From Shigella phage KRT47, in the sequence record MN781580: a stretch of DNA of 64,000 nucleotides. One strand, 5' to 3'. Each line of letters opens with the position of its first letter. Position 1 is the first letter of the stretch. Position numbers and translations under genes: made by a program. Shown one piece after another: positions 4,973 through 59,705 of the stretch. Under the pieces are notes generated by a model, which made no database searches, was not told the DNA's origin, and worked only from the letters and a program-made list of their open reading frames with translations.

Positions 4973-5149
4973 TCACCCTTTAAGTAAGTCGTAAAATCCG
5001 CCATTCACATGCTTAGGAGCAGAAGCCCGACGAGTAGACAAACGATGACATTTAGGGCAAACATCATTTTCTCGTTCAGAAATCTTTTTAATTTTTTCAT
5101 ATTCATGCCCGCAATCTTCGGATTGGCATTTATAATCATACATTGGCAT
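4973..5149 (-). CDS. Small zinc-ribbon protein, 58 aa (not in ORF track)
   Basis: Hand-translated MPMYDYKCQSEDCGH...CPKCHRLS with two Cys pairs; AAGGA SD before ATG at 5147-5149. Confidence 0.5.
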   Translation of the reverse strand: MPMYDYKCQSEDCGHEYEKIKKISERENDVCPKCHRLSTRRASAPKHVNGGFYDLLKG

Positions 5150-5151
5150 AA

Positions 5152-5577
5152 TTATTCCTTAAAATGAGCTTTCAGCATCTGATACAAGGACCATGCCTGT
5201 TCATTATTTTCAATAGTAACTTTCATGACAGGAAATTCTGTGAAATCTTCTATTTGTTCTTGCTCTTGCTCTTCCTGCTCTTGCTCTTCAGCTGCCTGAT
5301 ATGGATTTTCCACTTCATCAAAGAACTCAGCTTCGTTAGTAGAGAGCCAGATAAAGTTTTCGTCAAGGATATCACCATGTGTTGCATATCCAATTGTGCC
5401 AGTAAATGACATAATTTTAGTAGGACGACCAAGATGGTCAACATCTAAAATTTTAAAAGGATGCATACCTAAACGTCGTGCATAAATTCCGTTATCAGTA
5501 TGGTCTTTAATAAAAGCTTCTTGAGCTTGTTTATTTTTAAATTGATACCATTTATTAACTTCAAATTTAATAGCCAT
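5152..5577 (-). CDS. Hypothetical protein with acidic EQ-repeat tract, 141 aa (possibly goF-like by size and position)
   Basis: ATG at 5575-5577 overlapping upstream stop; identity to T4 goF not verified. Confidence 0.55.
5257..5289. repeat. Imperfect hexanucleotide repeat (CTCTTG/CTGCTC) encoding the [12 protein letters not shown] tract
   Basis: ttcttgctcttgctcttcctgctcttgctcttc read directly from the sequence. Confidence 0.6.
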
Positions 5578-7157: not shown

Positions 7158-7652
7158 TTAATTAAGGATATTAATTACTGCACTACGTGGAACTACACTA
7201 AAATCACCTGCATGAACAACGTTCAGAAGTTCAACACCGTCTTCAATCCACTGATCAGTTACCCATCCACTCACTGGACCTGCGAACGGACGTCGAATTG
7301 AAACAGCTTTACACAACAAATCAGTAGGCTCAATAGGCTTAACCAGAGTACCGTACATACAAGCGATATCCATATCAATACAGATGTCTTTAACGGGTTC
7401 TACTTCTTCAATCAACAGTTCAAAGTCGGTGCTTGGAAGGGCGGTAGTAGAAATTGTACCGTATGAATTTTTAATTTCTAAGAATAACCAAGGGCCTTCA
7501 GCTTGTTTGATGAAGTTAACAATAGTGAAACTATTACCTTGAGTGGCGCCTAAAATTTCACAAAACTTTTCATAAGCTCGCACTGAAGCACCATACCAGT
7601 TGATTTGCTTTTCGTCTTTCAGGATGTAAGTAGCTGTAGTACTGATATTCAT
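7158..7652 (-). CDS. Hypothetical protein, 164 aa; paralog of the 6183 and 6612 ORFs
   Basis: ATG at 7650-7652 with AAGGGG SD; C-terminal WVTDQWIEDGVELLNVVHAGDF motif. Confidence 0.6.
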   Translation of the reverse strand: MNISTTATYILKDEKQINWYGASVRAYEKFCEILGATQGNSFTIVNFIKQAEGPWLFLEIKNSYGTISTTALPSTDFELLIEEVEPVKDICIDMDIACMYGTLVKPIEPTDLLCKAVSIRRPFAGPVSGWVTDQWIEDGVELLNVVHAGDFSVVPRSAVINILN

Positions 7653-7664
7653 GATGTTTTCCCC

Positions 7665-8168
7665 TTAATCTAAGGTAATAAAGCCTTTTAATTCGGCATG
7701 TGACTTGCGGAACATTACTTGATGACCGCCAATGATAACTTGGTCATCAGGTACTTCGTATACAGCGAGATAAAATCCTTTAGAAGCTAATTCTTCACGC
7801 TCTTCTCGTGTGAACCATCTCATCATATCATATTCGCTAGCGAAAGCAAAATGATAAAGAGCTATAAACCATCCTGGAATATAGTGATCTACGCCTACAT
7901 ATTCTTCTTTCTCAAAATTAGTATTAATTGCTATATTAGCATTTTTAACTAATAATTTGTCTTCGCGCGGAAGAGGAATTCTTTTGTTATCATTACTATG
8001 ATGCATAAAATTAGGTCTATCATAACCTACGTGTAATAACCACTCTTCGCTCCATGAATCTATTATACTCCTGTATGGCGTTATTTGAACACAAAGATTT
8101 CGACGTATTGTTATAGCATCTTCACAATTAAGAATACTAAAAGATGATTCAACACGATAAATTTTCAT
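7665..8168 (-). CDS. Hypothetical protein, 167 aa
   Basis: ATG at 8166-8168 with GAGGAT SD, downstream of an early promoter; track start is an upstream TTG. Confidence 0.55.
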   Translation of the reverse strand: MKIYRVESSFSILNCEDAITIRRNLCVQITPYRSIIDSWSEEWLLHVGYDRPNFMHHSNDNKRIPLPREDKLLVKNANIAINTNFEKEEYVGVDHYIPGWFIALYHFAFASEYDMMRWFTREEREELASKGFYLAVYEVPDDQVIIGGHQVMFRKSHAELKGFITLD

Positions 8169-12146: not shown

Positions 12147-12749
12147 TTATAGATTAAATCCTTCAAAATCAAGAGTATAGATAGTGTATGTTGAATACTT
12201 TTTGTACTCATATCTATCTGCAATTCTAAATACACTTCCAGCTGGTATCATTACTTCTTGTTCATCTGAAACTAATTCCATATTACGATAACGATGGCTA
12301 TCCGGAAACTTAAAGTTTGGATTGTATTCTTTACAGCGTAGAGCTTTTATAGCATACTCCTGGAAATTGAATACCATAGGAGCTTTGAATTCAAAAATAA
12401 CTTGTGTGTTATACTCTAAACCGGAAGCAAAATGTAGAGCTATATTTTTATCATATGAAGCTGATACTACTTTATCAAATGTAATAATATCAATTCCTTG
12501 ATTTAATATTTGTTTAGTCTCAACTGGAACACCTCTCCAAAGAGGTTTATCGTTTGGAACCAAACGAGATTTGATTATTTCATTTAACCAAGTATGGTCA
12601 TCTGGTTTGTTGGTAATACAATGAATTAAAAGTTCAATTTCAGATAAATTAAACCCTTCAGAAAGTAATTCTTCACGAATAGAAGCACGCACCGATGCAT
12701 CCATTGATTTTATTTTAAAATCTTTTAGTTGCATTACTGAGTATTTCAT
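12147..12749 (-). CDS. modA: ADP-ribosyltransferase ModA, 200 aa
   Basis: R / STNR-like / EQE (R-S-EXE type) motifs; 200 aa as T4 ModA. Confidence 0.75.
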   Translation of the reverse strand: MKYSVMQLKDFKIKSMDASVRASIREELLSEGFNLSEIELLIHCITNKPDDHTWLNEIIKSRLVPNDKPLWRGVPVETKQILNQGIDIITFDKVVSASYDKNIALHFASGLEYNTQVIFEFKAPMVFNFQEYAIKALRCKEYNPNFKFPDSHRYRNMELVSDEQEVMIPAGSVFRIADRYEYKKYSTYTIYTLDFEGFNL

Positions 12750-13369
12750 TCAATTACCTCAATATCATAAACTTTAAATGTTCCAAATGAATCGTGTAAT
12801 TTTTCTTTTGAAATAGAAGTTATTTTATACTTTCCAATTGGAATCATCCATTCTTGTTCATGTACAATCATCATTAAGTTATCAGTTCTTTCTGAATCTA
12901 ACCCATCAGTATCTTCATACGTGTACTTAAACTCAGTGTTAGGAGAAGAAAGTATAATATCGCTGATATGGTCAGAATAATTAAAAGCTTTATCAGTTTT
13001 TAAACGAAGTATTGTTTCAGTGAAATATTCAGCATAAGAAAAAGAACACGCTGTATGCAAACTAGTAGTAAATGAATCTACCCTGTTCGTTGAAAACACT
13101 TCTCCAACTTGTAAATCTTTAATAAGTTCTTTTGTCGATTTTGATATACCACGATATAATTGATAAGGCGATTTAGTTAAATGCTTTTTAATGATTTTAT
13201 TCAACTGCCTATGAATAGCTTCATTCTTTTTGGCTTCCATACATTGCCAAAGAACAGACTGCTCAAAGTCAGTAAATTTTTCACAGACTTTTTTATACAT
13301 ATCATATTGAAAATCAACGCTTTCAGCTTTTATAGATAACTGTTCAACATCTGCAGGATTAATAATCAT
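12746..13369 (-). CDS. modB: ADP-ribosyltransferase ModB, 207 aa
   Basis: LYRG, STNRV and EQEW motifs; ATG at 13367-13369 with GGAGG SD; ATGA overlap with modA. Confidence 0.75.
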   Translation of the reverse strand: MIINPADVEQLSIKAESVDFQYDMYKKVCEKFTDFEQSVLWQCMEAKKNEAIHRQLNKIIKKHLTKSPYQLYRGISKSTKELIKDLQVGEVFSTNRVDSFTTSLHTACSFSYAEYFTETILRLKTDKAFNYSDHISDIILSSPNTEFKYTYEDTDGLDSERTDNLMMIVHEQEWMIPIGKYKITSISKEKLHDSFGTFKVYDIEVIE

Positions 13370-18365: not shown

Positions 18366-18992
18366 TTAACCTCTATTCATAAAAGCATTAAAAATTTGGT
18401 CATCAATAGAAACATTTACTTTAGACTGTTTTTCAGATGGCAATTCATATCCACATATTACAATTTTATGATCAATATTAAAATACACAGAAGCAATATG
18501 ATTAATGATATTTTCAGTGAAGTCTAAATCGACATCAATATCTTTTTGACCAAAGCCCAAAGGATAAATAATGCGAGTAATTCGATTATCTTTAACAAAG
18601 ATTCCACCGACATACTCTGTACTGCGTTTAAAGTCTACACGCCGACGAAATGAAAAATATTCAGGCTCTCTATGAGCTCGGCTCATAGGACACAACGAGT
18701 AACTAGAATAAGAGATGTCAAATCCTACGCCTTCGATATGAGCCAAAGTGTTATGATTAAACCAATTATAATCGTACGCCAAATCCATTAGATTATAATA
18801 TGTAAAAGGCACCGGATTAACATCATTAGTCACAAGCATATAATTAGCAACTGCTATAATTTCATTGTTTTTAACGAATACAAACCGTGATTGATGCGAA
18901 TGACCTGGACCCGCGTTTTCACGATTAATGATATAACACTGGGCACCTTTATATTTGTATGTATCTTTGCACTTGTGCATTTGATAGAGCAT
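18366..18992 (-). CDS. Hypothetical protein, 208 aa
   Basis: ATG at 18990-18992, overlapping stop of the upstream gene. Confidence 0.55.
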   Translation of the reverse strand: MLYQMHKCKDTYKYKGAQCYIINRENAGPGHSHQSRFVFVKNNEIIAVANYMLVTNDVNPVPFTYYNLMDLAYDYNWFNHNTLAHIEGVGFDISYSSYSLCPMSRAHREPEYFSFRRRVDFKRSTEYVGGIFVKDNRITRIIYPLGFGQKDIDVDLDFTENIINHIASVYFNIDHKIVICGYELPSEKQSKVNVSIDDQIFNAFMNRG

Positions 18993-57081: not shown

Positions 57082-57267
57082 TTAAAGCGTATTCACATAA
57101 GCTATTAATTCGTTTTCTTTCTTATCAAACCGGTCAGCAAATTCTTCTTGCTGTTCGGGAGATAGCGGGCCGTATTCATCATAAAAGGTGTTTGCTTCTG
57201 TATGCTCATCTAGAAGTTCATGGATAAGCTCAAACAATTTATCTTTTTGTTCTTTGCTTAGGCTCAC
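57082..57267 (-). CDS. Small acidic hypothetical protein, 61 aa, GTG start
   Basis: ORF only; no in-frame ATG near the start. Confidence 0.4.
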   Translation of the reverse strand: MSLSKEQKDKLFELIHELLDEHTEANTFYDEYGPLSPEQQEEFADRFDKKENELIAYVNTL

Positions 57268-57436
57268 AGTATGTCAATCCCCAAAAGTTTTAAAATGACT
57301 CGTTTCTGATTCATAACCGCTACGATTGAATGACCGTTGGGGTCTTTTTGACCTGATCCAATTATAAATCCTTTTTGCGCAGAAAGTTTAATCAAAACAT
57401 CAAGTTCACGTAATAATTGATATTTTAAATCATCAT

Positions 57437-57649
57437 TCATTTTGGTTTACCTTCTTTAACGAAATCAGGATAAGGATAAAATCCTGAATAAAATCCTTCA
57501 CCTTTATGATTGATGCATCCTTTATTAGAACAATAGCACCAATAATCGAAATCACAAGCCATTTCATCGTTGCATAAAGCAAAAACAACCGGCCACTTAC
57601 ACTTTTCACAGTGGGCATTTTTAAGAATACTAGTTTGGCTCATAACCAT
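57437..57649 (-). CDS. Small Cys-rich protein, about 70 aa
   Basis: ATG at 57647-57649; about 10 Cys including CEKC and CYC pairs. Confidence 0.45.
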   Translation of the reverse strand: MVMSQTSILKNAHCEKCKWPVVFALCNDEMACDFDYWCYCSNKGCINHKGEGFYSGFYPYPDFVKEGKPK

Positions 57650-57852
57650 GTAACCTTTAAGCAATATTCTTCTACATGTTGTTTACGACCTTTCTTATCA
57701 ATAAAGGTATATTCAACGAATGTTCCAATGTAGTCTTTATCTACATCATGTGGACTATTAATTGGGCATTTAGTACGGCAAATGCGTTCCCATTGACGAA
57801 TAATTTCTGCTTTGTTTTTAGGATCAAACGGATGCGGGTAATGTACTTTCAT
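57640..57852 (-). CDS. Small hypothetical protein, 70 aa
   Basis: ATG at 57850-57852. Confidence 0.45.
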   Translation of the reverse strand: MKVHYPHPFDPKNKAEIIRQWERICRTKCPINSPHDVDKDYIGTFVEYTFIDKKGRKQHVEEYCLKVTWL

Positions 57853-58303
57853 AATCCACCACTATTAAATCAATATCAGGAGTAAACATGTCGATTAATT
57901 TAGAAACCTTATCCCAATCACCGCCAGCAATACCGCAACCTATGCGTGGAATGTAAATTACCGGTTTAAACAAAAGGGTTTCTGCCTGTAGATTTAATTC
58001 TATCATGCAGTTTACTAAAGCACCATAATCAAGATTAGGACCTGGTTCGTATTGCGTATACAGGTTATAGCATATACCAAATCCTGTAGGACTATGTTTA
58101 AAAACAATAGACATATCGCCTAATTTATCACGAGAACCGTACTCGGTAGTGGTTTTATCTATTTCTAAAATTTTGGGATAGGCTCTTGCTAATTGACCTG
58201 CTACGCCAGAGCCCATTGTGTGGAAGCAATTACACCCGTGTGCAATAATATTACCTTGAAGAAATAGGGCGACAATATCGCCCTTGATATATTTTACAAT
58301 CAT
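57824..58303 (-). CDS. Macro-domain-like protein (putative ADP-ribose binding/hydrolase), 159 aa
   Basis: KGDIVAL...NIIAHGCNC...MGSGVAGQLA...IGCGIAGG parallels macro motifs GDIT/VNAAN/GGGVxGAI/IST-G. Confidence 0.55.
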   Translation of the reverse strand: MIVKYIKGDIVALFLQGNIIAHGCNCFHTMGSGVAGQLARAYPKILEIDKTTTEYGSRDKLGDMSIVFKHSPTGFGICYNLYTQYEPGPNLDYGALVNCMIELNLQAETLLFKPVIYIPRIGCGIAGGDWDKVSKLIDMFTPDIDLIVVDYESTLPASV

Positions 58304-58641
58304 CTAGTACTCAATCCTCGATTATAAGAATCTACTAAACGGTCAACCATTGAATGACAAGCGGCTTTATCTTTCTCCTCCGCAACTGAACATTCTAAGG
58401 TATTCCACTTTTTAGCATATCGTTTTAACAATGTATCATTTTTGTATCTGCTTGATTTATCTCTTTCTCCGTCTTTATATGCATATATTAATTTCTGTGC
58501 AAATTCAGCTTGGCATGCTTTATTTTTCCCGCAATAATCCGCTGCAGTACGGTTTACATACTCTCTAATTTCAGTATATGATGTATCTGCTAACGCAGAA
58601 AATGAAATTAATCCTATACATAAAACCAAAATTTTAGTCAT
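58300..58641 (-). CDS. Secreted Cys-containing protein, 113 aa
   Basis: Signal peptide MTKILVLCIGLISFSALA; four Cys. Confidence 0.5.
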   Translation of the reverse strand: MTKILVLCIGLISFSALADTSYTEIREYVNRTAADYCGKNKACQAEFAQKLIYAYKDGERDKSSRYKNDTLLKRYAKKWNTLECSVAEEKDKAACHSMVDRLVDSYNRGLSTR

Positions 58642-59675: not shown

Positions 59676-59705
59676 ATTATACCACAGTCAAGAGGAAAAG
59701 TAAAC
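59676..59705 (-). promoter_or_regulatory. Early promoter (-35 GTTTAC, -10 TATAAT)
   Basis: Minus-strand GTTTAC at 59700-59705, TATAAT at 59676-59681. Confidence 0.55.

Follow-up and report, generated by a model that had tools for sequence, protein, structure and literature searches.

What would a macrodomain do in a phage that also encodes ADP-ribosyltransferases of its own? The question arises in Shigella phage KRT47 (MN781580), a T4-like phage (Tequatrovirus) of which a stretch of 64,000 nucleotides, called the window in what follows, was analysed here. The initial annotation had described a macro-domain-like protein in it and proposed that this protein could reverse or read ADP-ribosylation, either the phage's own modification of the host through ModA and ModB or the modification of DNA by DarT-type host defence. 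The coding sequence stands head-to-tail with regB, vs.1, vs and tk.3 in a tight row, and its boundaries are as follows.

57824..58303, minus strand: tk.4/adfM-type coding sequence, 159 amino acids, a single macrodomain (ATG-initiated open reading frame)
58300..58303, minus strand: ATGA overlap between the vs stop and the tk.4 start (open reading frame coordinates and sequence)
57824..57852, minus strand: 29-nucleotide overlap between the tk.4 3' end and the tk.3 start (open reading frame coordinates and T4 alignment)

The macro-domain call itself proves correct. Pfam Macro (PF01661) matches KRT47 Tk.4 at 32 bits against a gathering cut-off of 22 (E=1.3e-7) and over 116 of its 118 profile positions, PHROG 335 matches with E=1.2e-71, and the significant sequence matches in the PDB are macrodomains without exception. 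An AlphaFold2 model (mean pLDDT 94.9, pTM 0.89), built on an alignment of 55 homologs from which the row with the T4 sequence had been left out, has the three-layer alpha/beta/alpha macro fold, and the motif series on which the call had been based is present in full, at verified coordinates (KGDIV, IIAHGCN, GSGVAG and IPRIGCGIAGG), so that neither a non-macro fold nor an absence of the Gly-rich loops, the two things that would speak against the call, was found. The closest relatives in both structure and sequence belong to the ALC1-like class (TARG1, DarG, SCO6735/BT1257 and Poa1p), and not to the MacroD, macroH2A or PARG types, which makes KRT47 Tk.4 an ALC1-like macrodomain, and a stand-alone one.

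The position of the gene is equally informative. In KRT47, tk.4 is flanked by vs and tk.3, as it is in T4, T2 and T6, and the order of the surrounding genes (tk, tk.3, vs, vs.1, regB) matches that of T4. T4 Tk.4, with 155 amino acids as compared with 159, occupies the same slot between vs and tk.3, is 58% identical over 155 of 155 residues with no internal gaps (E=1e-70), and has the H22/N25/Q84/G122/G124/W130 core in common with the KRT47 protein. The open reading frame at 57824-58303 is therefore the positional ortholog of T4 tk.4/adfM, in the form of a divergent allele, and the 480-nucleotide frame finds matches in 561 phage records (megablast).

This orthology brings with it a phenotype. 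It had been found that T4 lacking adfA and adfN was still resistant to DarTG2, and a further factor was predicted (PMC11825919). When a T4 transposon library was subsequently screened on a DarTG2-expressing host by HIDEN-SEQ, tk.4 was the single significant hit, a clean tk.4 knockout made T4 sensitive to DarTG2, and the gene was named adfM, for anti-DarT factor Macrodomain, in a preprint of November 2025 whose authors propose, with support that is genetic only, that T4 AdfM strips ADP-ribose from DNA (bioRxiv 10.1101/2025.11.20.689424). The system of these authors requires a native promoter, and DarTG2 defends more strongly under sub-MIC chloramphenicol. In the CmdTAC paper, no link to a T4 macrodomain was found, the word occurring only in its reference list. 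The observation at this locus is already known, since the domain is named in GenBank and the anti-DarTG2 role has been reported for the T4 ortholog. Of the two functional options with which this analysis began, it is the reversal of DarT-type modification that gains support, through orthology to T4 tk.4 and through the residues shared with SCO6735 that are described below, and the reversal of ModA/ModB marks that does not. I infer that the KRT47 allele, at 58% identity to T4, would share the anti-DarTG2 role of its ortholog and would exert it by hydrolysis.

Why the ModA/ModB option falls away deserves a fuller account. The transferases Alt, ModA and ModB are specific for arginine, Arg-ADP-ribose is reversed by enzymes of the ARH/DraG type, and macrodomains are not known to cleave arginine-linked ADP-ribose. 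The presence of ModA and ModB in the window, at 12147-13369, was confirmed (98% and 96.6% identity to T4), and SCO6735 and TARG1 are able to remove Glu/Asp-linked ADP-ribose from proteins as well (PMC9411070), which together might suggest that KRT47 Tk.4 erases or reads the marks that Alt, ModA and ModB leave on host proteins. However, I consider this very unlikely: the arginine linkage lies outside known macrodomain cleavage, the two loci, separated by 45 kb, are not organised together and nothing was found that connects them, and for the knockout of tk.4 in T4, DarTG2 was the only condition under which a hit was reported. Furthermore, homologous macrodomains are carried by Pseudomonas, Vibrio and Bacillus phages far from the T-even group, in a comparison that covered the macrodomains of those phages.

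If DarT-type modification is the likelier substrate, the next question is whether the active site is suited to it, and four elements carry the answer.

58229..58231, minus strand: codon of Asn25 in the HGCNC motif (invariant in 55 homologs; equivalent to SCO6735 Asn27)
58196..58213, minus strand: first Gly-rich loop GSGVAG, residues 31-36 (G31 nearly invariant, G33 and A35 invariant in 55 homologs)
58052..58054, minus strand: codon of Gln84 in the NLYTQ motif (invariant in 55 homologs; equivalent to SCO6735 Gln85)
57920..57940, minus strand: phosphate-binding loop GCGIAGG, residues 122-128 (G122 and G124 invariant; A126, G127 and G128 at least 90% conserved)

Across the 55 homologs, which reach down to 38% identity, the invariant residues are H22, G23, N25, C26, G33, A35, D49, G62, N80, Y82, Q84, P119, G122, G124 and W130. 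Asn25 matches the conserved Asn that has been mutated in PhiKZ AdfM (N23A) and in DarG, and Gln84 sits at the position of the catalytic lysine, Lys84 in TARG1 and Lys80 in DarG, an equivalence also seen in the TARG1 profile alignment, which puts q opposite K. The catalytic dyad of human TARG1/OARD1, Lys84/Asp125, is accordingly replaced by Gln84/Ala126, and because Q84 stands opposite Lys84 and A126 opposite Asp125, the lysine mechanism of DarG and TARG1 cannot apply to KRT47 Tk.4.

A Gln-type site need not be inactive. SCO6735 of Streptomyces coelicolor and BT1257 of Bacteroides, the latter being the best PDB match of KRT47 Tk.4 by both sequence and structure, are ALC1-like macrodomains that likewise have Gln for the catalytic Lys, in the motif NMIGQ where KRT47 Tk.4 has NLYTQ. 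SCO6735 is efficient at removing thymidine-linked ADP-ribose from DNA modified by DarT, and it rescues cells from the toxin; its Q85A mutant is dead, N27S is almost inactive and G128E was shown earlier to have reduced activity, Gln85 positions the distal ribose, and in molecular dynamics simulations Gly126 contacts the diphosphate (PMC9411070). N25, Q84, G122 and G124 of KRT47 Tk.4, the last two aligned with Gly126 and Gly128, are the counterparts of the Asn, Gln and Gly-x-Gly required for this hydrolysis of thymidine-ADP-ribose in DNA, and by this analogy the chemistry of KRT47 Tk.4 is probably SCO6735-like rather than DarG-like.

The antitoxin DarG is itself the candidate that domain libraries suggest first, as DarG models are the best matches of KRT47 Tk.4 in the PADLOC and NCBIfam collections. 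The NCBIfam DarG equivalog NF048014 gives 27.7 bits, however, far below its cut-off of 250, and KRT47 Tk.4 covers only positions 2-142 of the 338 in that model and 3-144 of the 329 in the second DarG model, that is, the macro part alone, so that the C-terminal DarT-binding domain of DarG is absent from the 159-residue protein. The DarG structures (M. tuberculosis 5M3I, T. aquaticus 5M3E and T. africanus 7OMU) have Lys80 where KRT47 Tk.4 has Gln84, and no darT gene adjoins KRT47 tk.4, whose neighbours are vs and tk.3. The score, the missing Lys80, the missing DarT-binding domain and the lack of an adjacent darT together rule out that KRT47 Tk.4 is a DarG.

Taking as established here the reading frame, its macro fold and class, its synteny and the residues it conserves, and leaning on the work of others for the sensitivity of T4 ΔadfM to DarTG2 and for the Gln-type chemistry of SCO6735, I think it likely that KRT47 Tk.4 is a DNA ADP-ribosylglycohydrolase that operates early in infection and undoes the thymidine marks of DarT2 by SCO6735-type chemistry. 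The host DarT2 toxin of DarTG2 would attach ADP-ribose to thymidine in single-stranded phage DNA; KRT47 Tk.4, made early, would bind the ADP-ribosyl-thymidine on that single-stranded DNA, with the Gly-rich loops 31-36 and 122-128 holding the diphosphate and with Gln84, kept in place by Asn25, positioning the distal ribose for a water-mediated cleavage in which no catalytic lysine takes part; and the release of ADP-ribose would restore replicable DNA, allowing phage replication to continue. That the KRT47 allele is active and acts on DarT2 products is, in this scheme, what analogy with T4 and SCO6735 predicts.

Some existing gene names point elsewhere. The KRT47-type allele appears in GenBank as 'macro domain protein' or as 'phosphatase', T4 tk.4 has long carried the label 'A1pp phosphatase/macro domain', with 'contains A1pp phosphatase motif' in the T4 and T6 records, and other phage records of the gene use 'Poa1p-like family protein'. 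Legacy annotations of this kind ('A1pp phosphatase', 'phosphatase' and 'O-acetyl-ADP-ribose deacetylase') would suit an enzyme that works on small molecules, namely NAD-derived metabolites or signals, be it as an ADP-ribose-1''-phosphate phosphatase or as an O-acetyl-ADP-ribose deacetylase. However, these are transferred names and not tests, no phenotype but sensitivity to DarTG2 was found for the T4 ortholog, and the yeast phosphatase Poa1p has a Ser where KRT47 Tk.4 has its invariant Gln, the residue on which DNA activity depends in SCO6735, all of which makes such a role distinctly unlikely.

It is also conceivable that KRT47 Tk.4 neutralises DarT2 mainly by binding it, as a stoichiometric inhibitor, since SCO6735, DarG and TARG1 each still inhibit DarT in vitro when catalytically dead, SCO6735 most strongly (PMC9411070). 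The DarT-binding domain found at the C-terminus of DarG is nevertheless missing here, and the invariant residues of the catalytic site argue for catalysis, so that I consider inhibition without hydrolysis as the main activity very unlikely and return to the glycohydrolase reading.

A further point is the divergence of the KRT47 allele, which is sharply bounded.

57830..58255, minus strand: allele cassette diverging from T4 (37-83% nucleotide identity in sliding 60-nucleotide windows, 92-100% on both sides)

Nucleotide identity to T4 stays at 92-100% until about 50 nucleotides inside the tk.4 frame and is again 95-100% in tk.3, and the protein identities tell the same story, at 94% for tk.3, 97% for vs, 100% for vs.1, 99% for regB and 99% for tk, with only 58% for Tk.4; the differences between the two Tk.4 proteins are, in other words, packed into a single cassette within DNA that is otherwise about 98% identical. 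Altogether 42% of positions differ between the KRT47 and T4 proteins, including 4 of the 13 in the loop segment 119-131, where the phosphate loop reads GCGIAGGD in KRT47 and GAGIGKGN in T4, and the KRT47 allele is closer to the family consensus for this loop (GIAGG) than is T4's own (GIGKG). At the 3' end of tk.4, a 13-nucleotide deletion relative to T4 has moved the stop codon, and as a result the frame overlaps tk.3 by 29 nucleotides and gains the short tail STLPASV, for which the model has low confidence (pLDDT 68 in the last block of 10 residues).

This is not the peculiarity of a single isolate. In the phage collection, the KRT47-type allele is present at 95% identity or more in 275 records and the T4-type allele, at the same threshold, in 221, while 159 records have another class, at 80-90% identity to T4; T6, looked at as a possible classical carrier of the KRT47-type allele, has a tk.4 of T4 length (155 amino acids). 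The tk.4/adfM locus is thus strongly polymorphic, with at least three or four allele classes in circulation, and the segment beside it, tk.1/tk.2, has also been replaced relative to T4.

From here, one could suppose that the specificity of the KRT47 allele has shifted, so that, while still removing ADP-ribose, it would serve against a different variant of DarT2 or against some other ADP-ribosylation of nucleic acid, such as that of RNA uracil or that made by a further ART-based defence. Such a shift would explain how very different alleles coexist in near-identical T-even genomes, and would accord with a divergence confined so sharply to tk.4 (58%, against 94-100% for its neighbours tk.3, vs, vs.1, regB and tk), with the existence of several allele classes and with the variation of the phosphate-loop sequence between them. 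However, the core catalytic residues are the same in all alleles and the region is a mosaic in which tk.1 and tk.2 have been replaced too, so that plain recombination fits equally, and I judge the shift to be unlikely. A more general version, that tk.4/adfM is an allele-replacement hot spot whose alleles, 55-80% identical to one another, are non-interchangeable and are each matched to a different set of host enzymes that ADP-ribosylate nucleic acids (be they variants of DarT2 or further ART-based defences), giving the KRT47-type allele a substrate or toxin range distinct from that of T4 AdfM, is a speculation to which I would give a similarly small chance, since the T-even region is mosaic in general and recombination with no change in function explains the allele pattern equally well.

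Several further features of this part of the window may be recorded. A second mosaic patch, at 57082-57664 on the minus strand between tk and tk.3, directly adjoins tk.4 and differs from T4: its tk.2-like open reading frame is only 52% identical, no match to tk.1 was found in this segment, and it holds extra small open reading frames of 58 and 75 amino acids, the latter Cys-rich (CEKCKW...CYCSNKGC). On the other side, the vs gene (minus strand) has a 6-nucleotide in-frame deletion relative to T4 at about 58610-58620, in its N-terminal hydrophobic segment, leaving 113 amino acids as compared with 115 in T4 and a remainder that is about 98% identical.

For the early expression assumed in the mechanism, a promoter upstream of the regB-vs.1-vs-tk.4-tk.3 string would be pertinent.

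59676..59704, minus strand: best sigma-70-like promoter match upstream of the string (TTTACT-17-TATAAT with an extended -10 TG, 10 of 12 matches)

It rests on resemblance to the consensus only, and shuffled sequence yields no fewer such matches than the region does; it may be an early promoter that drives tk.4, and together with the gene packing it is compatible with early co-expression, just as the ATGA overlap of vs and tk.4 is compatible with translational coupling. Within the first 40 nucleotides of the tk.4 coding sequence, at 58266-58284 on the minus strand, there is also a G+C-rich hairpin of 8 pairs with a 3-nucleotide loop, followed by a T-rich run, in a stretch that is 92-98% identical to T4 and lies just upstream of the allele divergence. 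The same element is labelled a rho-independent terminator in the record of phage ECML-123-2, and as an RNA structure folded in its 81-nucleotide context it was not significant (z = -1.5); it might attenuate transcription into tk.4, or it might mark the 5' recombination boundary.

Other genes with a bearing on ADP-ribose are found in these genomes. At 18369-18992 (minus strand), the KRT47 window encodes a homolog of T4 gp61.2 that is 96% identical over 208 amino acids; I take T4 61.2 to be adfA, another anti-DarT factor, and adfN presumably to be gene 30.3, and if the former is correct, the window would encode two anti-DarT genes. In phage T6, nudE, a Nudix hydrolase annotated as active on ADP-ribose, lies at 7550-7990 of the T6 segment, near the regB-vs-tk.4 block and about 1.9 kb from tk.4, and a macrodomain that releases ADP-ribose and a nearby Nudix enzyme that degrades it could be a functional pair. 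More broadly, tk.4 illustrates the orphan antitoxin-like erasers with which phages would undo the ADP-ribosylation of DNA by host defences, and among phage-therapy candidates of the T4 group, the tk.4 allele may influence host range on DarTG2 strains.

How, then, does KRT47 Tk.4 compare with the systems already described? A homolog in the bacterium Pelagimonas phthalicica (5001-5459 of its chromosomal segment), 40-42% identical and with the motifs NAYTQ and HGCNC, stands alone amid housekeeping genes unrelated to it, and darT was absent from the surroundings of this one bacterial locus; Gln-type macrodomains of the Tk.4 family therefore exist as free-standing genes in bacteria too, and because this homolog stands alone, it provides no evidence for direct capture from a DarTG operon. 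Among phages, PhiKZ gp104, the 'AdfM' of chimalliviruses, also counters DarTG2, and its hydrolytic action on DarT2-modified DNA is established in vitro (PMC13309987, Cell Rep 2026). Like KRT47 Tk.4, it is a phage-encoded stand-alone macrodomain with the conserved Asn (N23 in PhiKZ). However, BLASTP between the two yields only 23 bits over 23 residues (hhalign probability 96%), PhiKZ AdfM keeps the DarG-type Thr-Lys motif (FPTKD) where KRT47 Tk.4 is of the Gln type, and it is imported into the phage nucleus, a structure that T4-like phages do not have; by sequence comparison, T-even AdfM and PhiKZ AdfM are separate lineages that share a name.

The resemblance to SCO6735 and BT1257 is closer, as these too are stand-alone proteins without a DarT-binding domain, although they are chromosomal while KRT47 Tk.4 is phage-encoded, and identity is no higher than 26-28% (25% in a local BLASTP alignment). 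The features that the SCO6735 authors link to DNA activity are a mobile loop with Lys89 and a Val/Ile at position 25, the backbone of which places the proposed catalytic water (PMC9411070). KRT47 Tk.4 lacks this mobile loop, which exceeds that of DarG and TARG1 by five residues, SCO6735 and BT1257 having an insertion of 5-6 residues after the Gln relative to the Tk.4 family, and in place of Val/Ile25 (HVCN/HICN) KRT47 Tk.4 has Gly23 (HGCN), so that, judged on these two features, it lies outside the SCO6735/BT1257 subgroup; function may survive the substitution, since the role proposed for position 25 is that of the backbone. What is added here to the known anti-DarT macrodomains is thus descriptive: a T-even AdfM with a Gln-type site, of a lineage apart from both PhiKZ AdfM and DarG, and with extensive allelic polymorphism.
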